The notes beneath the pieces are model-generated. The model was given only the letters and a program-made list of their open reading frames with translations, searched no databases and was not told where the DNA came from. A stretch of DNA of 43,550 bases, from the IMG/VR virus record IMGVR_UViG_3300017754_002612, positions 1 through 43,550 of that record; one strand, 5' to 3'. The stretch comes from a virus. Made by a program: the position numbers and the translations under genes. The stretch's first letter is position 1. Every line of letters starts with the position of its first letter. Shown here one piece after another: positions 3,166-38,374 of this stretch.

Positions 3166-3187
3166 AATCTTTCCTTAAAGGGTTGGT

Positions 3188-3409
3188 TTAAACTTTCGCC
3201 GCGCTAGTGAGCATCCATATTCCGGAATCGTCTTGGCGGACTAGCCCAGCTGACTTGAGCTTGTTTAGCTCGTCTTGCACCAGGCCTTCAAGCGCCAATT
3301 CTTTCCCTGGCATTACGTCAGTGAGATTGCAGGCGGAGTATGTGAGGTGCTTCACAGACTGGGGGCTGTATCTAAGGCGTGCTAAGATAACTGTGCGGAT
3401 GTCGGTCAT
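3188..3409 (-). CDS. Small protein (73 aa), possibly winged-helix DNA-binding
   Basis: The ORF ends like a wHTH wing (LNKLKSAGLVRQDDSGIWMLT). The fold call is weak. Confidence 0.5.
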   Translation of the reverse strand: MTDIRTVILARLRYSPQSVKHLTYSACNLTDVMPGKELALEGLVQDELNKLKSAGLVRQDDSGIWMLTSAAKV

Positions 3410-3411
3410 AG

Positions 3412-3759
3412 TTACACCACCTTGCCATTACGTATTTCACAGAAGGTGAATTGATTGCCGTATAGAGATAGAAAGAGCTTTTTTTTAATCTCGTAAACAG
3501 GTGTTTTAAAGCCCTTGACGTCCTCGACTATCCAATCTCCGTCAAGCCTGTACTGAAAGTCAGCTACATATTCAATAGCCCTGTAATTCTTTCCGCGACA
3601 TGTAAACTTATCTAAAAGCTTGAATCTAGGCTGTGTCATTAACCCCCAGATATGACCGGATTTCTCCAGCATCCGCAGAGTTGCATACCGCTGCGCCTCG
3701 GCCTTACTGCTGAACTTGATGTCGCCTACCGTGGTGGGCTTTGCTTTGTACTTATGCAT
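3412..3759 (-). CDS. DUF1064-family protein (PD-(D/E)XK nuclease-like fold)
   Basis: KYKAKPTTVGDIKFSSKAEAQRYATLRMLEKSG, YVADFQY and VEDVKGFKTPVYEIKKKLF match my recollection of the DUF1064 consensus. Confidence 0.75.
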   Translation of the reverse strand: MHKYKAKPTTVGDIKFSSKAEAQRYATLRMLEKSGHIWGLMTQPRFKLLDKFTCRGKNYRAIEYVADFQYRLDGDWIVEDVKGFKTPVYEIKKKLFLSLYGNQFTFCEIRNGKVV

Positions 3760-3959
3760 TAGATCCTCCCCAATTCCCGCAACTTGCGTTCAACGCGGTG
3801 CATCTCGTCATCCGGCAGCAAACTGCGAACATAGGTCGGCACGGTGTCCTTGGTAAGCCACTTGGACAAGAGCGGATCAAAGTAGGTAAACTGCCCGTTG
3901 CGGTGGATGGACACGCATGGTCGGCAGGTTTTACCTTGGACTAGGACGGTGTTGGTCAT
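3759..3959 (-). CDS. Hypothetical protein (66 aa)
   Basis: ORF with overlap coupling on both sides. Confidence 0.55.
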   Translation of the reverse strand: MTNTVLVQGKTCRPCVSIHRNGQFTYFDPLLSKWLTKDTVPTYVRSLLPDDEMHRVERKLRELGRI

Positions 3960-4573
3960 TTGTGTACCTGCTTGCTCTTTGGAATCAGGTCATTCTTGCA
4001 GAACTTCTTAAACTTGGCCTGACGTGCGCACTCGCTCTCGAACTGAATGACAATCCCTTCCGGGTCCATAAAGCCTGGGACCAAGACGGATCCGGCAGAC
4101 GAGAGCATGTCAACCATGGAATCAAATAGGCCGGGGTTCCAGGTGCCCTGATAAAGAACCGGCACCTTCTGAACGATCGGTATCAGGTCATCGCGCCACC
4201 ATTCAAAGCTGGCGAATCGCCTCTCGGTTAATCCGTATCGGCGTTGAATGCCTGAGCCGTACCATTCCCCGTAATGATAGCCGGGGCCGAGCTTGACCAA
4301 CTCTGAGGCATGTTCAGCAACCCAGCGAGCGAAGCCAAAGTTGTCCTTCTCGGGGGTAATCCAGCCATTGCGTGCGCCAGCGGTGACAACGCCGTCATCA
4401 GAGACGTGTATCAGGCCGTTGGTGCCGTCGATCTTTTCGGTGATGGTAATTGTCTCCGAGCTTAGGCGCTGGATTGAGGGGAAGGAGGGGTAGGTAGGAG
4501 TGGAGTCAGGCATGTAAGGGGTCCTTGCAGGATGCATGGACCATACGCATGGTCTAGCCATGTCAACAGACAA
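3956..4573 (-). CDS. ATP-dependent RNA ligase family protein (nucleotidyltransferase, KxDG)
   Basis: Motif I TEKIDGTN, then GEWYGSGIQ, EGIVIQ and a KFKKF lysine motif, in the order expected for the Rnl2/PF09414-type ligase core. The start is ambiguous (TTG 4573, ATG 4561 or ATG 4513). Confidence 0.7.
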   Translation of the reverse strand: MSVDMARPCVWSMHPARTPYMPDSTPTYPSFPSIQRLSSETITITEKIDGTNGLIHVSDDGVVTAGARNGWITPEKDNFGFARWVAEHASELVKLGPGYHYGEWYGSGIQRRYGLTERRFASFEWWRDDLIPIVQKVPVLYQGTWNPGLFDSMVDMLSSAGSVLVPGFMDPEGIVIQFESECARQAKFKKFCKNDLIPKSKQVHK

Positions 4574-4610
4574 CCTTGCGCTTGGTCAGAGTTGATATAG
4601 CATACACGAC

Positions 4611-4742
4611 ATGAAGAAAATCTACACCGCATCAGAAATGGCCGCACTGCGATGGGCAAAGACTACACCTGAGGAGCGAATTGCACATAGCAAGAAAATG
4701 ACAAAAGCTCTGAAATTAGCGAGGGAAAAGCGCGGTAAGTAG
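4611..4742 (+). CDS. Possible small basic protein (43 aa)
   Basis: Hand-translated: MKKIYTASEMAALRWAKTTPEERIAHSKKMTKALKLAREKRGK. It fills the divergent gap, but there is no clear Shine-Dalgarno sequence. Confidence 0.25.
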   Translation: MKKIYTASEMAALRWAKTTPEERIAHSKKMTKALKLAREKRGK

Positions 4743-4749
4743 AAACTTG

Positions 4750-4777
4750 TTGACCATGCGCATGGTGTTGCTATGTT
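4750..4777 (+). promoter_or_regulatory. Sigma70-like promoter of the rightward recombination operon
   Basis: TTGACC (4750-4755), 16-nt spacer, TATGTT (4772-4777), about 30 nt upstream of the ATG at 4806. Confidence 0.4.
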
Positions 4778-4805
4778 CCGCCCATCACCCACCCAAGGCC
4801 AGCAA

Positions 4806-5594
4806 ATGACCGACACCTCCCAATCCTTGCCGAACGAAATCAGAAACCGATACACCAACTCGGTGATCTATAAATCGAACACGGCCAAGACCATCAAAGA
4901 TACGCTGGTAGAGGCGGTGGAGTCTGGCGCGAACCTGGGCGACGCGTACCTGGGCGACGCGTACCTGCGCGGCGCGAACCTGCGCGACGCGAACCTGCGC
5001 GGCGCGTACCTGGGCGGCGCGTACCTGGGCGGCGCGAACCTGGGCGGCGCGAACCTGGGCGGCGCGAACCTGCGCGGCGCGAACCTGGGCGGCGCGTACC
5101 TGGGCGACGCGTACCTGGGCGACGCGAACCTGCGCGGCGCGAACCTGCGCGGCGCGAACCTGCGCGGCGCGAACCTGGGCGACGCGTACCTGGGCGGCGC
5201 GAACCTGGGCGGCGCGAACCTGGGCGGCGCGAACCTGGGCGATGACGGCAAAATCCTATCCACCGCCTCAGTCCAGTTCACCGGACACGGCGTCTGCGGT
5301 CGCAATCTGCTGGCCGTACAGGCCGAGAAGACGACGCGCATCTTCTGCGGCTGCTTCAATGGCACGCCAGACGAACTACGTGCATGGATTGATTGCAATG
5401 AAGCCATCTACCGCAAAACGCGAACCCTGGCGCTAGACACCGCCCTAATGCTTTTGTCGGTGGAGAATGACACCGCAGAAGACTTAGAAAAGGCAAAGGA
5501 GGCCGCGCAGGTAGTTATCAGTAAGACAAAAGCCAAGCGCAAATCGGCGGTCAAAAAGATGGCAAAGAAGGCCACTAAGAAGCGGAAGGGCTAA
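4806..5594 (+). CDS. Pentapeptide-repeat protein with a lysine-rich C-terminal tail
   Basis: 21 consecutive [G/R][G/D]A[N/Y]L pentapeptides, then a roughly 90-aa Cys-containing domain and the tail KTKAKRKSAVKKMAKKATKKRKG. ATG 4806 has AAGG 8 nt upstream. The track start at 4773 lies inside the -10 box. Confidence 0.9.
   Translation: MTDTSQSLPNEIRNRYTNSVIYKSNTAKTIKDTLVEAVESGANLGDAYLGDAYLRGANLRDANLRGAYLGGAYLGGANLGGANLGGANLRGANLGGAYLGDAYLGDANLRGANLRGANLRGANLGDAYLGGANLGGANLGGANLGDDGKILSTASVQFTGHGVCGRNLLAVQAEKTTRIFCGCFNGTPDELRAWIDCNEAIYRKTRTLALDTALMLLSVENDTAEDLEKAKEAAQVVISKTKAKRKSAVKKMAKKATKKRKG
4923..5237 (+). repeat. 21 tandem 15-bp units encoding the pentapeptide array
   Basis: Unit is (G/C)GC G(G/A)C GCG (A/T)AC CTG. 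Only three nucleotide positions vary, each between two states, and no synonymous differences were seen. Confidence 0.95.
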
Positions 5595-5596
5595 TT

Positions 5597-6022
5597 ATGA
5601 CCACCTCCGAACTCGACCAACGCACCGAAGCCCTAAACGCCGCCACCGCCCTCTTCACCGAGGACCATAGCCTAGTCGAAGCGTTAAAGGCGTTGCAGTC
5701 CGGCAAGTGGACTTTCACGCCCGACAAGGCATACGGCTCGCTTGCCCCGGCGCTCGACACCACGGAACACCTTTCCGACCTGGCAGACGAGGCGTGGGAC
5801 GTGTCGGTTAAGTGCAACAGCGCTGGACTCACTGCACTGGCCGGTCTCGCCGAGCGTCTGGACCAGTCGATCCGCAAGGTGCTGGTCGATCCCCGGACTG
5901 TGCGCGATTCGCTGGCTGGCTTCTCGGTGCTGACCACCGATGCCCGCAAAACGCTGGACGCCGAGGAGGACAACCTTCAGGCGATGGTTAATCAGGCTAT
6001 GCCGTTTGGAGCTGTGGCATGA
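5597..6022 (+). CDS. Hypothetical protein (141 aa)
   Basis: ORF starting 3 nt after the upstream stop, with a 4-nt overlap to the next gene. Confidence 0.7.
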   Translation: MTTSELDQRTEALNAATALFTEDHSLVEALKALQSGKWTFTPDKAYGSLAPALDTTEHLSDLADEAWDVSVKCNSAGLTALAGLAERLDQSIRKVLVDPRTVRDSLAGFSVLTTDARKTLDAEEDNLQAMVNQAMPFGAVA

Positions 6023-6378
6023 AAATCGACTACTCCGACGACTCCACCCTGATCATGGCCCTAGAAGACGACCACGACCACCTCCGCGACCACTGCGAAC
6101 GCGTCGCAATTGAGCGTGAGGCGAAGAAGGAATGCGAGCCAACGCCGATTCTGAGTATGCATGCAGCGCCAACCCTGAACTGGGATCTCATCATCGACTG
6201 GTGCCTACTGCTTATCGTCACCGTTTCGTTCATCCTGACCATGATGTTGTGCGGTATATGCATCCAGGCGTGGCTTGAACTGGAAGGTTCCGGCCTGATC
6301 GCGTGTGGCGTCTGTGCGGTGCTGAGTGCTGCCGTATGTGGCGTGGCTGGGTGGGTTACGGTTAAGCGCATAACTTAA
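6019..6378 (+). CDS. Membrane protein (119 aa, two C-terminal TM segments)
   Basis: Acidic N-terminal half, then LIIDWCLLLIVTVSFILTMMLCGICI and GLIACGVCAVLSAAVCGVAGWV. Confidence 0.7.
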   Translation: MKIDYSDDSTLIMALEDDHDHLRDHCERVAIEREAKKECEPTPILSMHAAPTLNWDLIIDWCLLLIVTVSFILTMMLCGICIQAWLELEGSGLIACGVCAVLSAAVCGVAGWVTVKRIT

Positions 6379-6411
6379 ATAAACAATGCCCGAATGGGCG
6401 GAAGGAATCAC

Positions 6412-7044
6412 ATGGACAAATCTCAATCAATCGGCGCTCTCGCCACTGCCGTGCTCAAAGCGCGAACTTCATTCAAGCCTGCAATTAAGGACGCAAACAA
6501 CCCGTTTTTCAAAAGTAAGTACCTGACCCTCGAGGGATGCTATGAGGCCATCGATGTCGCCATGGCCGCCAATGGTCTGGTTGTGATTCAATCCACCGAT
6601 GTGGGGGATCATGGCCCGGTGCTGGTCAGTACTCTGATGCACACTTCTGGAGAATGGATCAGCGGAAGCTACCCACTCAAGCCGGTCAAGGATGACCCGC
6701 AGGGAATGGGCAGCGCCATGACGTACGCCCGCCGTTATGCGCTTATGGCAATGGTTGGCCTAGCTGCTGAAGACGACGACGGCAACGCAGCATCTCGGAA
6801 GGTTGCCAAGGTAGCCAGCGCTACTGGCGAAGTGGTTACTAAAATCCCTAAATGGTCGCCGGAACAACTCAAGGAAGTTGGTGGATATTTCGCTGAGGTC
6901 ATCAGGATTGGCGGGGAAACCGGAGAGGCTGAAGTTAAGAAGCTACGGGCTGATATGAAATACGACCAACCATCATCTGTTATTGACGCTGCGGCAGTGC
7001 TTGCCCGCAAGTGGCTTGACATTGAATCACAAGGAAACGGCTAA
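6412..7044 (+). CDS. erf: Erf-family single-strand annealing protein
   Basis: FFKSKYLTLEGCYEAI and GMGSAMTYARRYALMAMVGLAAEDDDGN match the ERF signature as I recall it from P22 Erf. ATG 6412 has AAGGAA upstream. Confidence 0.85.
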   Translation: MDKSQSIGALATAVLKARTSFKPAIKDANNPFFKSKYLTLEGCYEAIDVAMAANGLVVIQSTDVGDHGPVLVSTLMHTSGEWISGSYPLKPVKDDPQGMGSAMTYARRYALMAMVGLAAEDDDGNAASRKVAKVASATGEVVTKIPKWSPEQLKEVGGYFAEVIRIGGETGEAEVKKLRADMKYDQPSSVIDAAAVLARKWLDIESQGNG

Positions 7045-7454
7045 TGCCAACTCTCGCATCCTGTTCGATCATCGGACACCTTTACGAAGCTCCTAAGAAA
7101 ATCGGAACCGGGGAACGAACTGGGGCCTCTTTTCGGTTTTACACTACCGATCGCGTCAAGGGGGATGATGGGGAGTACGGTAAGCAATTCACTTCTCATT
7201 CAGGAGTTATTTGGGGCAAGGAAGCGGAATGGCTGATCCGTGACGGAAAGAAAGGGTCGTTGATCGCCTGCGCTGGAACCTTCCGTGTGCGCAAGTGGGA
7301 GAAGGACGGTAGGGCTGGGGCCGGTACTGACATTCAATGCCAGTCGGCTAAGATCCTGAACCGTGAGGAAGAGGATCAGGCCGAGAAGCCAGCGCCTGCC
7401 CGGGCGCGTCCGGTTGCCCCGGCTGCTGGCGGTGAAGACGAGCCACCCTTTTAG
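7044..7454 (+). CDS. ssb: Single-stranded DNA-binding protein
   Basis: An OB-fold-sized N-terminal region, a Pro/Ala-rich linker and the acidic tail GGEDEPPF typical of SSB C-termini. The gene directly follows erf. Confidence 0.8.
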   Translation: MPTLASCSIIGHLYEAPKKIGTGERTGASFRFYTTDRVKGDDGEYGKQFTSHSGVIWGKEAEWLIRDGKKGSLIACAGTFRVRKWEKDGRAGAGTDIQCQSAKILNREEEDQAEKPAPARARPVAPAAGGEDEPPF

Positions 7455-7510
7455 GGGGTGGCCATGTATAACTCTTATCGTCGCCAGTTGCGGCGGGAGG
7501 TGGCGTCATT

Positions 7511-7939
7511 ATGAATAAAAAAATTATCAAACGATTTGACGCGAAGAGAGATATTTTACTGCAAGTGTTTAAGTCCAAACATCCAAAGGACTACAAGGAA
7601 ATTGTTGTAGAACTTGTGAAGGCAATAACCAGTGATGATGATTATGATGAAGATGGGCTAAATCCGGACCCAGAAAGAATAACCGTCGTAGATCATGGCG
7701 ATTACCAGGGCTCTCTATTGTTTATTATAGCAGCAAAGGGGTATCAGCCTTCTAATTATTGGGCAACAGAATGTAATTATGGCTCATGTTCTGGGTGCGA
7801 TACGTTGCAATCTATTTGCAATTACGACGATTGTCAGCCATCAGATGAACAGGCAAATGATTATTTAACTTTGTCCTTACATTTGGCTCAAAAAATGACT
7901 AAGTTATTTGAAGACCAATCATCAAAAGAAGCCCCATGA
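7511..7939 (+). CDS. Acidic Cys-motif protein (142 aa), unknown function, low-GC gene
   Basis: GGGAGGTGG Shine-Dalgarno sequence. Contains SDDDYDEDG and ECNYGSCSGCDTLQSICNYDDC. Composition is visibly more AT-rich than the flanking genes. ATGA overlap with the next gene. Confidence 0.75.
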   Translation: MNKKIIKRFDAKRDILLQVFKSKHPKDYKEIVVELVKAITSDDDYDEDGLNPDPERITVVDHGDYQGSLLFIIAAKGYQPSNYWATECNYGSCSGCDTLQSICNYDDCQPSDEQANDYLTLSLHLAQKMTKLFEDQSSKEAP

Positions 7940-8301
7940 CCCTAACCCCCACCCAACTACAATCCTACGCCAACAACCAATCCCCGGTTCATGGGGAATT
8001 GGCGGAGGTGGCGCGGGATTCCATTAGGAAGAGCGAAGAGATAGCGATTTTAAGCAAGGCACTGGAAGCGCTCCAACGCCGCACTGCTCGTTACGATCAC
8101 GCCAAAGATCTAGGCCAAGCGGTTGATGGCGATGCTGCAATCATGTCGCGGCTGACGTTTGAACGCGACGCCGCCAAAGCCGCACTTGCCGAGACGGCTG
8201 CGCAACGGGATGCGGCGGTGAAGAGGGTTGCGGAGTTGGAGGCGGGGCATGGGAATGTTTTTCCGCGAAGGAATTTGGAGTGGGCACCATCCAGCAACTG
8301 A
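7936..8301 (+). CDS. Hypothetical protein (121 aa, helical)
   Basis: ORF coupled to the upstream gene. Confidence 0.65.
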   Translation: MTLTPTQLQSYANNQSPVHGELAEVARDSIRKSEEIAILSKALEALQRRTARYDHAKDLGQAVDGDAAIMSRLTFERDAAKAALAETAAQRDAAVKRVAELEAGHGNVFPRRNLEWAPSSN

Positions 8302-8485
8302 TTGCAGAGAAGTCTACTATGCAATGTGACTGCGAATAGGAATAGAATGCACCCCACTGACGACTTCGACCTAATCGCCGGACTGCGCGCGATATGGCTT
8401 TTCAGGCACTTTGATAGGCCTCGGGAGATTGTGCGGTTGTTGCTAAAACGCTTACGTAAACCATGATTCCACGAAAGGAAACCCC

Positions 8486-8776
8486 GTGGCCACTACTGTC
8501 TCAGAAAAACTCTCCCTGTTCATCGACGCCTTGCTCTTGCAGGGCGGACCGAAGCATTTTTCCATTGACGGCGAGGAAGAAGTTGACGTAAGGCAGCTCT
8601 TCGACAAGGCCATCGGAATCATCAAGTTTAAGGAGGAGCAGCAGGTGCAGCTGCTTCAGAAAGTTTCCGCTCCTTCATCGCCTGCTTCACCTGCAAAAGC
8701 TGCTTCATCAAAGCCTGAATCTCAGGGTCTTTCGACTGCTGATAAAAAGACTGGTACGACTGCACATCAGGGCTAG
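8486..8776 (+). CDS. Hypothetical protein (96 aa), doubtful 3' part
   Basis: GTG start with AAAGGAA 6 nt upstream. The first roughly 47 aa look protein-like. The last 149 nt run antisense to the end of 8628..11939 and encode low-complexity S/P/A sequence. Confidence 0.35.
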   Translation: MATTVSEKLSLFIDALLLQGGPKHFSIDGEEEVDVRQLFDKAIGIIKFKEEQQVQLLQKVSAPSSPASPAKAASSKPESQGLSTADKKTGTTAHQG

Positions 8777-11700
8777 CAGCTAGGTAGTCGCTCAGGAGCT
8801 GACGCAACGCAGCTTGTTCATCTACGGTCTTCACCTTGGCCCCGGTTAGGGTGTTCAAGAGTGAAGCGCCGGTGGATTCATCGGGCGAGAAGAGGCTAGA
8901 AAGCGTGCTGATGGGGGAGGCGATGGGCTGAATGACCCCGGTCCCTGCCAGCATGTTGTACAGGGCCGCAGCATCAGACCGTTCATCAGCCCCCAACGCC
9001 TGGGCAATGCCCGGAGCCTTGTCGTAGGATCCCCACTTGGTTCCGAAGTAGGGATCCTCTCCGGTAAATACCGAGTATACGGTCTTTAGTGCAGGGTTGG
9101 CGGAACCAACAACGTTTTGCCGTAGCTGACGGCCAAGCTGCCCTATATCCACGCTGGGGTTAGGCAGGGACGAGAGCACTTCAATGGGCAGGCCAAGGCT
9201 GGTCAGGTACGTGGGATTACCATTAGGTGCATCCCCTAGCGGAATAGCCACCTGCTTCTGAAGCCATGGCGGTAGGGGATTCTCGCCAGCATCGTCCTGC
9301 GTGAAGAGCGGACGCGTTGCCGGGATCAGGAACGGGTTGTCTTTCATGGCCTTGACAACTTGCGGAACTGCCTTAGCCGTGAACTGGAAGAATGGGATAA
9401 TGTCACGCGCCCGACGATTGGCTACGCTGTTGTAGGCGTAATCGTAGAAGGTATCGCTGACCACCTGAGCTGCCTGCTTGGGGTCCATGCCGCTCTTCAA
9501 TAGCCCATCGAATACCGAGAAGCGCATACGCATTTCGGCACCCTGTGCGATCTTGGCAGGCCAATCGCGTAGATCGGCATAGATCTTTCTCCAGCCACTC
9601 TTGGCAATCTCCTTAGAGAGGAGTTCGGAATCAGCAAACGTATTGGCAATAACGCCATGCCGCAGGGCTTCCTGCATAGATCCAGGCGGCAGCGCATTGA
9701 TGGCGTTATCCAGGCTGCCATTGGCTCCTTTGATGGCCGTATTCAATTGTTTAAAGATGTCCTCACTGGCGATGCGTCTGCCCAGGATGTGGTTGATGCC
9801 GTCATTAACGGAGCCCCAAAGCATATCCGCCGATTCCCGTGCATACTTCGGCCACTGTGCGCGGGCGGCTGGATTGGACAGCACCTGGAACATGCCGCCA
9901 ACGATGTTTCTGGTATTGAAATTGATGCGCGGGATAAATGCGCCAGCCGTAGCAAACGGCTTGAACTTGTTGTTGACCATGGCCAAAGCCTGTTCAAAGC
10001 CTCCGCGACCTGGCAGGCCAGACCATGCACGGGCCAGCGCATCGGCTGATGCACGGTCTGTCAGGGCAATTTCATCAATGATCTTGGGGATGGCGTCCTT
10101 CAAGGCTGGACCATTTTCCATACCAAAGAGCGATGCCCCCTTAGCGTCTAGTGCGGCACGTTCAGCGGGAGTCAGTCCGACCAATTCCAGACGTTCCTTG
10201 GCATCCATCTGGGTCCACTTCTCAATGGACTTGCCAGCATTGGCCAGCTTCTCTTCCGCAGAGGCGATGAAGGGGCCAGAAAGCACCTTGGCAAACTCGG
10301 CCTTACCAAGAAGTCCGGCCTGCTGCTGTGCGTACTTGCCCTCAACCTTGGCAATGTCGTACTCTGGAGTCTTGCCACTGGCCTTGATGGCTGCCATGTA
10401 GGCTTCCTCAGTGGGGTACTGACGCGCCATGGCAGTGCTTAGGCTACCGCTACCACTTTGGGCGAAGATCTTTCCGAGATCATCTTCTTCCTTGAGCATG
10501 CGCGGCATGTAGTCGGCAAAGGACTTGGCCGCCGATTCGCCAGGGCCAACGCTCATAACACCGCGCCGGATGCGCTCCTGCCACTGCTGATGCTTCAGGT
10601 CAACGTACTTGGGGATGGCTTCCTTGAGGCGTGCAGCCTGTTCCGGAGGAAGGCCCGATGCGTCCACCCTGGCCAGAATGCCATTGATAACCTGATCCCG
10701 TTCCCCGCGATTAGTGAACAGGGCTTTCTCCAGATCGTCAGGTGCCACACGTACCATTTCCGGTACGGTCTTGGACATGCCGCTGGTGAATGCTGCCGCT
10801 TCGCCTGGGTTCTTGACTAAATCCACGCCTTCACGGGCGGCACGGGGGATGCCAGTGGCACCAAGCATTCCAGCTACGGCGTCGGGGGTAGATCCCGGGG
10901 TAGATACGGTTTCAGCGTTGCGCTTGAAGAGGGTGGCAAAGTCTTCAGGGACGTTGACGGCACCTTTGACAACCGGGCCAATGGGAGTCGATCCCTTGAT
11001 GCGAGGGATCGGCAGGTCAGTCAGGAATGGATCATTGGCGATGTCCACGCCGCTGGAGAACTTGCCCTCAATGGGCCGCACGGCGTACTGTGTGGGGTCG
11101 GCGGCAGCGCCCTTCTGTGGTGCGCGTCCCAGCATCTGATCCAGGTCGGACAGCTCCTCAACGCGGGTTGGCTTGGTTACGCCCTTGTACACGTCCTCAG
11201 CAAGCGGCACCGACCCCGGCGATTGATAGGGCTCCAGGCGCTCCAGTACCTTTTGCGTCTGGACAGCACGGGCTGTATTGGGCACCGATGGCACCAATAC
11301 CCGCTCGCCATCCTGCGACACGTTCCGCATGATCTTACCGAAAGCCTCCAGGTCTTCTGGCGCTAGGCCAGACAGGGCTTCACGGGCACCGGCTGCGGCC
11401 ACTTCGCCAGCGGTTGACGAAGTGTTGTTGAGTGCATCAATGGCGTCACGGGCAACTGGGCTCAACTTCTCAGCGCCAGCGAGACGCTTGACAAAAGCAG
11501 AGGTGGAATCAATTCCGCTGTCCATCTTAGCTAGTGCTTCAGCGCCTTTCGGGATCTTACTGATACCCGTACGCGCACTAGATGCGGCAGCTTTGAGCGG
11601 GGTCGTGAATAGGCCGGTGCCGACGTAGGTCAGCGGATCAGTGGCGATACCACCAAGGATGTCAACGCCCGTTTTGAGTAGGCCGGGGTCCATCTTGGGA

Positions 11701-11939
11701 GCGCCCCACTTCGCCAGCATGTCGCTGAACTCTGGGCTATCTTCTTGCTGGCTGAGTTCGGGGATCAGGTCGCCGGGGAGGAATGCATCTACCGTATCGC
11801 CAACCAAGTCAGCCCCCTGACGTAACGCGCCACCGAGATTACCAGTGGCGATATTACGTACAGAGTAGGCCGGACGACCAAGATACCTTAAAACTTCTTC
11901 AAAGGCGCTTGGCTGATCGAGGTCTAGTGCATTGGGCAT
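8628..11939 (-). CDS. Large internal virion / DNA-ejection protein candidate (1103 aa)
   Basis: Longest ORF and last gene of the late operon, in the position of T7 gp16. No lysozyme or transglycosylase motif recognised. Confidence 0.5.
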   Translation of the reverse strand: MPNALDLDQPSAFEEVLRYLGRPAYSVRNIATGNLGGALRQGADLVGDTVDAFLPGDLIPELSQQEDSPEFSDMLAKWGAPKMDPGLLKTGVDILGGIATDPLTYVGTGLFTTPLKAAASSARTGISKIPKGAEALAKMDSGIDSTSAFVKRLAGAEKLSPVARDAIDALNNTSSTAGEVAAAGAREALSGLAPEDLEAFGKIMRNVSQDGERVLVPSVPNTARAVQTQKVLERLEPYQSPGSVPLAEDVYKGVTKPTRVEELSDLDQMLGRAPQKGAAADPTQYAVRPIEGKFSSGVDIANDPFLTDLPIPRIKGSTPIGPVVKGAVNVPEDFATLFKRNAETVSTPGSTPDAVAGMLGATGIPRAAREGVDLVKNPGEAAAFTSGMSKTVPEMVRVAPDDLEKALFTNRGERDQVINGILARVDASGLPPEQAARLKEAIPKYVDLKHQQWQERIRRGVMSVGPGESAAKSFADYMPRMLKEEDDLGKIFAQSGSGSLSTAMARQYPTEEAYMAAIKASGKTPEYDIAKVEGKYAQQQAGLLGKAEFAKVLSGPFIASAEEKLANAGKSIEKWTQMDAKERLELVGLTPAERAALDAKGASLFGMENGPALKDAIPKIIDEIALTDRASADALARAWSGLPGRGGFEQALAMVNNKFKPFATAGAFIPRINFNTRNIVGGMFQVLSNPAARAQWPKYARESADMLWGSVNDGINHILGRRIASEDIFKQLNTAIKGANGSLDNAINALPPGSMQEALRHGVIANTFADSELLSKEIAKSGWRKIYADLRDWPAKIAQGAEMRMRFSVFDGLLKSGMDPKQAAQVVSDTFYDYAYNSVANRRARDIIPFFQFTAKAVPQVVKAMKDNPFLIPATRPLFTQDDAGENPLPPWLQKQVAIPLGDAPNGNPTYLTSLGLPIEVLSSLPNPSVDIGQLGRQLRQNVVGSANPALKTVYSVFTGEDPYFGTKWGSYDKAPGIAQALGADERSDAAALYNMLAGTGVIQPIASPISTLSSLFSPDESTGASLLNTLTGAKVKTVDEQAALRQLLSDYLAASPDVQSYQSFYQQSKDPEIQALMKQLLQVKQAMKERKLSEAAAPAAPP

Positions 11940-36834: not shown

Positions 36835-36994
36835 GCACATCTACCATGGACAGCTACATAGCTAACCTCATCAACACGGCAGTCAGGGCAATAAAATACC
36901 TTTTGATTCATTTCGGGACGCTTCATAATCCCAGCATCAGCAACCGCTGACATTCCCACGAGTGATTGACTCGCAAGCCCTGAAAGGGCAAAAC

Positions 36995-38374
36995 ATGCTG
37001 CAAACTATCGTCAACCCCATTAATGCAGTCACCGGCAAGCCATACTCTGGCGGCAATGTCGCTAAGCTCATAGACGCGATGGATAGCGACTTGCGCTTTG
37101 TCACTGGCGCATTTGCCACCTTCCGCCAATGGCTGGCGATCGGTCGTTGCGTGCGCAAGGGGGAAGCGTGTGCCGCTCGTCTCTTGGCCTTTAGTGACGG
37201 CCAGACACAGGAGACAGATTCCGGCAAAGTGAAGGGCAAGGGCAAGGCCAGGTTCAAGAAAGGCTTTTGCGTGTTCGCCATCGAACAAACTGACGCGATT
37301 GAAGGCTGGACACCCGATCAGTCTCCCACCATCACAAGGGAGGAAGATACGGGCGAGGCTCCAGCCGTTGCAGTGGCGCAGATAGCCAAGCCAAGCCCTA
37401 CCATCGACCTTGCCAAGATCAGCGCGAAAGCCGATAAGCTCATCATTAAAGCCGAGGCATGCTTTGCTGATCGTCTCCAGAATACCGCCAAGCGTCTCGC
37501 GCAAGCCATGCACAAGCGGATGGAAGGCCAGCGCATGGAACGACAGGCGCACATCCTCAAGGCTTTCGTGCTCGCCAGTAAAGATGGCCAGAACCCATTG
37601 CCAGGTGCTACCATTAGCGACCTGTTCCAATGGTCTGAGGAAGCCGCTATCTATAAGGCCACCCCGGTTTCAAATGGCTATTATGGCTATCACGTCGAAA
37701 CTACGGACGCGCAATACACGGAAGCGCATCACGTCGCTTTGCGCGGGCTGCTTGACCCTCGCGCCGTTGCTGCATCGGCTGAAAAGATAGCCAAGGAACG
37801 GGCAGAGGCTGACTTGCGCACTTGTGACTTTCCCGGTTTCTTCCCGACTCCTGCTAGCGTTGTGCAAATCATGCTGGAACAGGCGGGCGACCTACGGGGT
37901 AAGGCAGTCTTGGAACCGTCGGCAGGAAAGGGGGACTTAGTTAGAGCCGCACTTGAGGCCGGGGCAAAGTCTGTCAAAGCATTTGAGATTGTTCCGAAAC
38001 TGGCCGACTATCTGGCAACCTTCGTGCGTCCCACTGGTGCGCAATGCGTCGTCTCTCAGCAAGCCGACTTTCTGAATGAATTGCCGGTCGGACCACATGC
38101 ACGGGTTGACGTTGTTTTGATGAATCCGCCTTTTGAGCGAGATGCAGCACCCGCCCACGTATTGCACGCGCTTTCATGGCTCAAGCCGGGGGGAAAGCTC
38201 GTCTCGGTTATGCCTCTGAATTGGTCAGAAAAGAAAGCCGCAGACTACCTCTTGCGCACGATTGAAAACATGGGGTTGTCAATGCTGGAGGTAGAAGTGG
38301 ATGGGCCAGCATTCAATGGTGCTGACAGCTTCAGACAGACGGCTGTCCGTACCTGCATCCTCGTAATCGGATAA
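36995..38374 (+). CDS. ArdC-N-like ssDNA-binding domain fused to an N6-adenine DNA methyltransferase
   Basis: The N-terminus NAVTGKPYSGGNVAKL...ATFRQWLAIGRCVRKGE matches the ArdC N-terminal (DUF1738) pattern. The C-terminus has SAM motif I VLEPSAGKGDL and catalytic motif IV VLMNPPFE. ATG 36995 has AAAGGG upstream (the track GTG is at 36962). Confidence 0.75.
   Translation: MLQTIVNPINAVTGKPYSGGNVAKLIDAMDSDLRFVTGAFATFRQWLAIGRCVRKGEACAARLLAFSDGQTQETDSGKVKGKGKARFKKGFCVFAIEQTDAIEGWTPDQSPTITREEDTGEAPAVAVAQIAKPSPTIDLAKISAKADKLIIKAEACFADRLQNTAKRLAQAMHKRMEGQRMERQAHILKAFVLASKDGQNPLPGATISDLFQWSEEAAIYKATPVSNGYYGYHVETTDAQYTEAHHVALRGLLDPRAVAASAEKIAKERAEADLRTCDFPGFFPTPASVVQIMLEQAGDLRGKAVLEPSAGKGDLVRAALEAGAKSVKAFEIVPKLADYLATFVRPTGAQCVVSQQADFLNELPVGPHARVDVVLMNPPFERDAAPAHVLHALSWLKPGGKLVSVMPLNWSEKKAADYLLRTIENMGLSMLEVEVDGPAFNGADSFRQTAVRTCILVIG

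Follow-up and report, generated by a model that had tools for sequence, protein, structure and literature searches.

What does a virus do with a protein whose body is an uninterrupted run of 21 five-residue units? This question is raised by a gene in a viral DNA of 43,550 nucleotides (nt) (IMG/VR record IMGVR_UViG_3300017754_002612, positions 1 to 43,550; this whole stretch is hereafter called the window), which encodes a pentapeptide-repeat protein of 262 amino acids (aa) upstream of genes for an Erf annealase and an SSB. The original prediction, made from the DNA letters, held that this protein could be a DNA mimic standing in the slot of Gam or Abc and acting in counter-defence. Our analysis shows a known fold joined to a C-terminal domain that had gone unrecognised, in a protein that evolves in an unusual way. 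The reading that we favour, with a probability of about 0.4, is that the protein evolves fast and binds a host factor that itself varies, perhaps in the service of counter-defence or host takeover, and that its changes reflect an arms race with a host protein and not simple DNA mimicry. A counter-defence or host-takeover role appears plausible from the sequence data, whereas classical DNA mimicry is unlikely.

The array consists of exactly 21 units at residues 40-144, as had been described, the first being SGANL and the other 20 following the pattern [G/R][G/D]A[N/Y]L with no interruption. Tandem Repeats Finder reported for it a period of 15, 21.1 copies, 92% matches and a score of 492, and the 15-nt unit occurs 20 times at no more than 2 mismatches, against 0.22 occurrences expected, and nowhere else in the window. 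These units vary at 3 nucleotide positions only, and every difference is nonsynonymous. The protein matched the Pfam family Pentapeptide (PF00805) with E=3.4e-34 and 116.4 bits (cut-off 20.2), and its 21 units place it within the superfamily, whose members carry no fewer than 8 A(D/N)LXX pentapeptides in succession and score above the Pfam gathering threshold. A full-length AlphaFold2 (AF2) model built from a 4-sequence alignment has a strand every 5 residues; its mean predicted local distance difference test score (pLDDT) is 56.6, with values of 72-87 over residues 11-90 and lower ones beyond. When this model was compared with the PDB by Foldseek, each of the top 20 matches (probability of 0.99 or more) was either a pentapeptide-repeat structure or a designed pentapeptide solenoid, the engineered 'Beta1' solenoids coming first, then HetL, Rfr23, Np275 and Alr5209, with Qnr and MfpA lower. 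Profile search and structure prediction thus agree with the beta-helix that had been proposed, and the models indicate that the repeat body is a genuine right-handed quadrilateral pentapeptide-repeat beta-helix.

The helix is the fast-evolving part of the protein: phages that share 96-99.7% identity elsewhere differ in the number and order of its units. Over window positions 4625-6414 and 8346-11915 the sister phage L004 matches the window at 96% identity, and within the gene 357 of 357 nt after the array and 113 of 117 nt before it are the same. The two arrays have 23 units in L004 and 21 in the window, in a different order, and a Cys unit variant (TGC at position i-1, where the Leu of the pentapeptide is position i) is private to L004. 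L018, L019 and L021, with 99.4-99.7% identity over 8.5-11 kb, have 25, 21 and 21 units in different orders, and L035 and L036, whose flanks are 99.6-100% identical, have 18 and 31. L019 and L020 are 99.95% identical and their arrays are the same. Because L044, an independent assembly from a separate sample, is 100% identical to the window over 4346 nt, including all 21 units, the array of the window is not an assembly artefact.

Where within the pentapeptide does the variation fall? The inward residues (Ala at i-2 and Leu at i) are fixed, and the variation lies at the outward positions i-1, i+1 and i+2. We counted distinct single-step variant codons against the consensus of each array in 20 lineages. 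At the exposed positions 91 variants were nonsynonymous and 4 synonymous (pN/pS 5.8; binomial P=6.5e-6 for the synonymous deficit), whereas at the core positions 5 were nonsynonymous and 15 synonymous (pN/pS 0.19), and the two classes differ with a Fisher P=2e-11. Between the window and the relative L001, the nonsynonymous (dN) and synonymous (dS) divergences are 0.10 and 0.76 for the C-terminal domain (dN/dS ~0.13) and 0.235 and 1.245 for the N-terminal cap (N-cap). Both flanking domains, as well as the core Ala and Leu, are under purifying selection. Conservation operates at the protein level, because the codons for one and the same pentapeptide differ between lineages (GCG/GCC/GCT/GCA and CTG/CTC/CTT). 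For this reason the 15-nt repeat was rejected, family-wide, as a DNA-level element such as iterons or an origin within the gene; the window, L004 and L001 have one 15-nt unit in common. Mutagenesis by a diversity-generating retroelement (DGR) was also rejected, as the open reading frames (ORFs) of the window include no reverse transcriptase, no template repeat was found and the variation is not adenine-specific, the variable bases being G/C, G/A, A/T and A/G at unit positions 1, 5, 10 and 11.

The array is followed by a conserved C-terminal domain (C-domain) of 78 aa, the Cys-containing domain of the original prediction, whose cysteines in the window protein are C164, C181, C183 and C197. Its motif reads HG-E(90%)-C(63%)-GR ... 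CGCF-x-G, and in the numbering of the window protein H161, G162, G165, R166, C181, G182, C183, G186 and L191 are invariant. The window protein fits the domain through H161, G165-R166 and C181-G182-C183-F184-x-G186, and carries Val163 in place of the 90%-conserved Glu, a position at which its clade has Val, Ala or Gln. That the Glu and Cys of HG-E-C-GR might be alternative metal ligands was considered and discarded after a covariation check, in which no compensatory pattern appeared. The AF2 model of the domain, from a 68-sequence alignment, is a beta-beta-beta-alpha-alpha arrangement with a pLDDT of 90.5 and a predicted template-modelling score (pTM) of 0.81. Foldseek found no match to it in the PDB (best E 0.86), and its matches in the viral library BFVD were confined to further pentapeptide or solenoid proteins of phages (best E 3.9e-3). 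No model in Pfam, NCBIfam or PADLOC matched the domain, and a known defence component was rejected on the PADLOC search, which gave no match. A local resemblance to the GCFWG active-site strand-helix of MsrA (E=0.008) was not taken as homology of the CGCF motif, because it covers 24 residues only and is accompanied neither by a Pfam PMSR hit nor by a fold match.

How widespread is this domain? A word-indexed search of 5.8 billion proteins with residues 141-262 returned only three relatives, namely P0001 (8 repeats, basic tail), P0002 (~9 repeats, no tail) and P0003 (2 repeats, no tail), the last two being complete ORFs. An exhaustive search of 1.84 billion representatives with a C-domain profile gave 283 clusters (50% identity) at E<=1e-3 and 118 at E<=1e-10. 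In the members the C-domain sits at or near the C-terminus, and the N-caps are, by reading, of two types, 'MKIEIKSxxGxVLF...AV' or 'xxELxxILxxHxxWL..GGxRAxL'. The number of repeats ranges from 0 to 24 with a median of 9-11 and no preference for multiples of four, and some members consist of the C-domain alone or have only 1-3 repeats (examples are P0024, with 80 aa and the domain alone, P0034 and P0003). At the level of sequence, then, the family is composed of an N-cap, a variable pentapeptide array and an HG..GR/CGCF C-terminal domain, and this domain is new to the databases. A separate observation concerns P0150 (888 aa), a protein returned by the search of representatives, in which profile positions 21-45 of the C-domain, that is, the CGCF segment, matched in nine separate stretches, and which may be a repeat protein built from the CGCF motif.

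In the window protein the C-domain continues into a linker (residues 223-239, net charge -2) and a tail (residues 240-262, KTKAKRKSAVKKMAKKATKKRKG) with 13 K/R among 23 residues and a net charge of +13. The polycationic tail of the original prediction is therefore present in the window protein, but it is a lineage-specific trait: it occurs in P0001, P0016 and P0065, P0002 and P0003 lack it although their ORFs are complete, and only ~6 of 137 family members run well past the C-domain, ~95% having no tail.

The family comes almost wholly from metagenomic and viral contigs. One genome each of 185,579 bacterial and archaeal species (GTDB representatives), scanned with two sets of motif patterns, yielded no close relative and one contig of a metagenome-assembled genome, and a motif-pattern scan of 72,556 PLSDB plasmids yielded no family match. 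With near-zero matches in these pattern-limited scans, a prophage or plasmid distribution was rejected, and the near-absence from cellular genomes and plasmids speaks for a role during infection and against one in cells or lysogens. Neither megablast nor tblastn with the full protein found a match among GenBank phages, and among 50,697 GenBank phages the C-domain was found in Vibrio phage EniLVp02 only (L016, PP209424). This phage has two adjacent tandem paralogs (3176-4255 and 4260-5135), whose solenoid regions are long, degenerate and not regular. Among the papers and family libraries that we searched, none assigns a function to a phage pentapeptide-repeat protein; in a transcriptome paper on a Listeria phage, the sole remark is that HHpred detects a likeness to pentapeptide proteins connected with gyrase.

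The features of the locus are collected in the table below. Met at 4806 is taken as the start because the homologs P0001 and P0003 align from there; the other in-frame ATG (4773) falls within the -10 hexamer of the promoter-like site. From this Met the protein runs through the N-cap, the 21 pentapeptides, the 78-aa C-domain, the linker and the Lys-rich tail. In the AF2 model the N-cap has strands at 10-14 and 20-24 and a helix at 30-39 (pLDDT ~87). By inspection, the N-terminus has no hydrophobic stretch, and the product would be an early, apparently cytoplasmic phage protein. The opposite strand carries a 179-aa ORF (4868-5407) whose PRFAP-type repeat translation mirrors the array; it was discarded as a gene and taken as a mechanical by-product of the 15-nt repeat.

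Features of the repeat-protein locus, with positions in the window
Feature	Position	Strand	Basis or remark
Repeat-protein gene	4806-5594	+	Intact ORF, 262 aa, stop codon included
N-terminal cap, residues 1-39 (IRNRYxNSVIY...TLVEAVESG)	4806-4922	+	AF2: beta-hairpin and helix
Array of 21 pentapeptide units, 15 nt each, residues 40-144	4923-5237	+	Repeat search, Pfam, AF2/Foldseek
Conserved C-terminal domain, residues 145-222 (78 aa)	5238-5471	+	Profile search, AF2
Acidic helical linker and Lys-rich tail	5472-5591	+	Charge count; lineage-specific appendage
Sigma-70-like promoter candidate TTGACC-16-TATGTT, TG upstream of the -10 (TG-n-TATGTT)	4750-4777	+	Consensus match only
Operator-like perfect palindrome ACCATACGCATGGT, twin of the spacer palindrome	4540-4553		Pattern search
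Small basic ORF, 43 aa, just upstream of the repeat gene	4611-4742	+	Own promoter-like site at 4592-4621
Two tightly packed ORFs, 141 aa and 119 aa (the latter with hydrophobic segments)	5597-6378	+	Between the repeat gene and Erf
Erf annealase	6394-7044	+	PF04404, E=8.6e-23
SSB	7044-7454	+	PF00436, E=4e-7

As originally proposed, Erf and SSB lie downstream of the repeat gene in what appears to be the same operon, since all are on one strand and no terminator-like site was found on the + strand within the gene block 4800-8300; two further small ORFs follow SSB in this same-strand block. In L004 the repeat gene still has the ORFs of 141 aa and 119 aa beside it, and the place that Erf and SSB occupy in the window (6394-7454) is taken by an annealase of Sak4-like type, an SSB-like protein and an endonuclease (L004 2174-4059). 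The repeat gene and the two ORFs downstream of it have thus been retained while the recombinase module was swapped. Among other relatives, L001 has the repeat gene downstream of a divergent gene for a helix-turn-helix (HTH) repressor, L009-L012 have the family gene next to DUF669, a helicase and a primase-polymerase, and L013 has it near PDDEXK, AAA_24 and DnaB. In Vibrio phage 1.184.A (L015, MG592550) a related gene, with the same N-cap and repeats and a C-terminus of another family (phrog_37032), is located between a Cro-type HTH gene and Erf with a RecE-like exonuclease; this gene (4986-5457) is split by a frameshift within the repeats, and its array is partly labelled 'CRISPR spacer' in GenBank.

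To what extent is this neighbourhood a property of the family? Our census covered 147 same-strand ORFs within 3 kb in the 27-28 viral loci with a detectable gene, and it showed no conserved partner family and, at most loci, no recombinase within that distance. The neighbours were mostly uncharacterised small proteins, with replication and recombination genes scattered among them (AAA_24 twice, DUF669 twice, DUF3799 twice, ERF once, DnaB and primases), and one neighbour among L001-L042 matches the CBASS inhibitor Acb3 (PF25187, E=3.4e-43), which would place a known anti-defence gene close to a family member. The downstream ORFs of distant homologs have no detectable similarity. A conserved partner gene was likewise rejected after clustering of 323 neighbour ORFs, none of which is shared beyond near-identical phages. 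Adjacency to an annealase is recurrent and independent of the annealase type, yet it is no family rule. The early-operon slot beside an annealase module, as it had been described, is found in the window, L004 and 1.184.A, and an annealase or exonuclease module also adjoins the gene in L009-L012 (DUF669) and L013 (AAA_24 and PDDEXK), but the link with Erf is not a family property.

The promoter candidate ends 29 nt before the ATG of the repeat gene. Sites resembling promoters are about as frequent here as chance predicts (6 observed against 3.2 +/- 2.0 expected from shuffles), but the spacer of this one is filled by a perfect palindrome, ACCATGCGCATGGT (4753-4766), and the pattern ACCAT-N4-ATGGT has just two perfect copies in the window, 213 nt apart and both in the control region. 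The spacer palindrome together with its sole perfect twin supports a regulated promoter, and the pair look like operators for a putative repressor. The upstream copy is near the divergent RNA-ligase-like gene. The statement that the repeat gene is the first one after a sigma-70-like promoter is correct in that such a site precedes it, but only approximate as to "first", because the 43-aa ORF is located just upstream. This ORF had no match in the family-library search, and from position 4625 on it lies inside the 96%-identical block common to the window and L004.

Elsewhere in the window, a Pfam scan of the ORFs found no reverse transcriptase, no integrase and no member of the Gam, Abc or Ocr families, and there is no tRNA. 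A 470-aa protein (36962-38374, + strand), in which ArdC-N (PF08401, 1.4e-10; phrog_7245) is fused to a DNA methyltransferase domain, is a separate counter-defence candidate. On the - strand are a gene for a DUF1064 or Holliday-junction-resolvase-like protein (3412-3759) and one for a 205-aa protein of the RNA-ligase family PF09414 (3956-4573), both divergent from the repeat gene, and the largest ORF of the window (8628-11939, 1103 aa), which had no PHROG match at E<=1e-5.

How does the protein compare with known systems? With Qnr, MfpA, AlbG and McbG it shares a small, apparently cytoplasmic pentapeptide beta-helix and a distinct C-terminal element that may dimerise, but it differs in its neutral helix, its overall basic charge, the lack of surface loops and the hypervariable number of repeats. 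The C-terminus is a short helix in those proteins and a 78-aa domain followed by a Lys-rich tail in this one, whose family was virus-restricted in the searches run. The best structural matches, the 'Beta1' solenoids (PDB 4YCQ, 5DI5 and 5DQA), HetL (3DU1), Rfr23 (2O6W), Np275 (2J8I) and Alr5209 (6OMX), align over 92-123 columns with 34-55% identity (42-55% for 'Beta1') at a probability of 1.00, and the natural array of the window is as regular as the engineered consensus. However, the 'Beta1' and cyanobacterial Rfr proteins have neither the HG..GR/CGCF domain nor the N-cap type nor the DNA-level tandem repeat of the window protein, and their functions are unrelated or not established. The resemblance to lambda Gam, P22 Abc1/Abc2 and T7 gp5.9 is one of place, in an early operon beside an annealing module and upstream of it as gam is with respect to bet/exo; the window protein has no sequence or profile similarity to them and is not acidic, and the adjacency is recurrent but not conserved. 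In TAL effectors, with their repeat-variable diresidues, and in variable tandem-repeat contingency proteins, variation is limited to the specificity residues. The window array is like them in its near-identical DNA repeats, its copy-number recombination and the exposed variation on a fixed scaffold, but it differs in fold, in its 5-aa unit and in its biology, and there is no sign of a residue code or of machinery dedicated to diversification. Finally, the matches to phrog_7713, phrog_31265 and phrog_923 (E=8.6e-35, 2.2e-32 and 2.6e-21), the last of which reaches into the C-domain (protein residues 20-211), are to phage pentapeptide proteins with no assigned function and add no mechanism.

Could the protein nevertheless be what its fold first suggests, a DNA-mimic inhibitor of RecBCD, of a restriction enzyme or of another enzyme acting on DNA ends or tracking along DNA, and so a functional analogue of Gam or Abc? 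A dimeric beta-helix rod would then fill the DNA channel of the enzyme and shield linear phage DNA for Erf. The pentapeptide-repeat fold speaks for this explanation, as do three independent cases in which the gene precedes an annealase, the annealases being different, the presence of Erf in a window that otherwise contains nothing recognisable as a homolog of Gam, Abc or Ocr, and an arms-race signature that is compatible with an inhibitor. Established DNA mimics, however, are strongly acidic, and in a sequence-level count the repeat region has 7 K/R and 6 D/E and a net charge of +1, the whole protein a net charge of +10 and an isoelectric point (pI) of 9.4, and the tail +13; within the family the pI spreads from 5 to 10. 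An array of 0-24 repeats with no preferred register is hard to fit to a fixed DNA channel, and hypervariation would be unexpected against a conserved target such as RecBCD. In Pfam and PHROGs the protein matches pentapeptide families only, with no homology to Gam, Abc (Abc2 included) or gp5.9; the Pfam scan of the 59 other ORFs of the window found no Gam or Abc; and neither a recombinase nor any other neighbour is conserved over the 27 loci. The charge distribution of MfpA has been noted before (PMC10886550), and two pentapeptide proteins, McbG and QnrB, failed to relieve the BREX exclusion of T7 (PMC7261183). All in all, an inhibitor of this kind seems distinctly unlikely. If the protein were instead a Qnr- or MfpA-like modulator of gyrase or topoisomerase IV, a helix dimerised through its C-terminus would mimic the T-segment on GyrB/GyrA and would redirect host topology or protect gyrase during infection. 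The fold class is the same, the C-terminal module could dimerise, structures of Qnr, MfpA and EfsQnr are among the Foldseek matches, and Igy and Gip are known examples of gyrase inhibitors from phages (PMC10886550). Against this, the models of the Qnr/MfpA/AlbG type scored only 21-37 bits against cut-offs of 240-500 (in NCBIfam, MfpA 37 bits against 360, Qnr 26.4 against 240, QnrA 30.9 against 450 and QnrB 24.1 against 460), so that the proposed likeness fails at the family level and membership in Qnr, MfpA, HetL or PipB was rejected, every score being far under its cut-off. In the Foldseek ranking Qnr and MfpA come after solenoids of cyanobacterial and synthetic origin, there are no Qnr-type loops within the 21 units, and variable length and surface diversification are a misfit with a highly conserved essential target; the chance that this is the answer is slim indeed. 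Taken as a whole, the original model of a DNA mimic that blocks RecBCD, restriction enzymes or a topoisomerase appears improbable. What gains from our results is its counter-defence side, because the strong signature of diversifying selection on the helix surface makes a conflict role more plausible, while the DNA-mimic mechanism finds no support.

Two further explanations were weighed. The C-domain might be the effector, whether a His/Cys metal site, a redox site or an enzyme, with the helix as a tolerated, slippage-prone spacer whose variation would mostly arise because repeats are unstable in a genome with an annealase gene of its own. It is true that the C-domain is the sole universally conserved part, with its invariant H, R and CGC under strong purifying selection, that some members are domain-only or carry 1-3 repeats, that repeat number shows no mod-4 preference, and that the short MsrA-like stretch exists. 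But pure neutrality leaves the 91:4 nonsynonymous to synonymous ratio at exposed positions, against 5:15 in the core, unexplained, and a folded helix seems to be selected, because most members keep long arrays with Ala and Leu intact. Moreover, the domain has no fold match and is too small for MsrA, and the window clade lacks the 90%-conserved Glu. We thus regard an effector C-domain with a neutral spacer as unlikely. It is also conceivable that the protein is itself a target of host immunity, or that it is an exclusion or defence factor against rival phages, and that the array varies to evade recognition or to keep up with those rivals, and not to inhibit a host protein. The same evidence of diversifying selection and copy-number change applies to this explanation, and in L001 and Vibrio phage 1.184.A the gene lies by a control or immunity-type region. 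Nevertheless, a gene that is a pure liability would be lost and not diversified, and the conserved N-cap and C-domain would remain visible to a sensor, while a defence role expressed in lysogens is unlikely because the family is essentially absent from the bacterial genomes and plasmids searched and the window has no integrase. We consider it very unlikely.

In the reading that we favour, a fast-evolving binder of a variable host factor, the surface of the helix would be a variable binding surface that follows, or escapes from, a rapidly changing partner. Its retuning would occur by duplication, deletion and shuffling of units, that is, by unequal recombination between the 15-nt repeats. The likeliest partner would be a host protein met early in infection, for example a defence or DNA-processing factor, and the repeat protein would act stoichiometrically, as a binder or inhibitor. 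The C-terminal helices of Qnr and MfpA serve in dimerisation or anchoring; the C-domain could provide a comparable constant function, dimerisation or anchoring, or else a His/Cys metal or redox site, whereas the Lys-rich tail may tether this lineage's version to DNA instead of mimicking it. A bolder proposal, which strikes us as rather unlikely, is that the protein is the founding case of a class of virus-specific 'shuffle-able' binders directed against variable host immune proteins, in which recombination between 15-nt units re-assorts the exposed residues and the number of coils. Such shuffling would possibly be aided by the phage's own annealase, and the shuffled helix, borne on an unchanging N-cap and the novel His/Cys C-terminal domain, would represent a repeat-based counterpart of DGR diversification in an intracellular early protein.

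Several points weigh against the variable-binder reading. Repeat arrays break the independence assumption of codon counts, and duplication and gene conversion complicate the neutral expectation. A strong codon preference could lower synonymous variation, yet the core codons do show synonymous variants. Short-read metagenome assemblies can misplace the order or number of units; even so, much of the array variation is arguably real, because identical arrays were recovered in independent assemblies and some unit types are private. The helix cannot be essential to the core function of the family, because some members have 0-3 repeats, and a catalytic reading of the C-domain is weak for the window protein, in which Val replaces the 90%-conserved Glu. 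Lastly, no conserved neighbour and no known anti-defence domain links the family to one host system.

What does this mean for the family? A family with an unrecognised and confidently modelled C-terminal domain, almost only viral and metagenomic, has been defined; copy-number change between near-identical phages is concentrated in the helix and not in its flanks; and the diversifying selection maps to exactly the solvent-exposed positions of the pentapeptide. The question therefore shifts from whether the protein is a DNA mimic to which variable partner the surface of the helix binds. If the signal is one of neutral repeat instability, the family would still be a useful case of a fold that tolerates arbitrary numbers of coils. 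If, on the other hand, the partner is a defence protein, it would be a counter-defence of a new type and would offer a beta-solenoid scaffold for binders that is both natural and evolvable.

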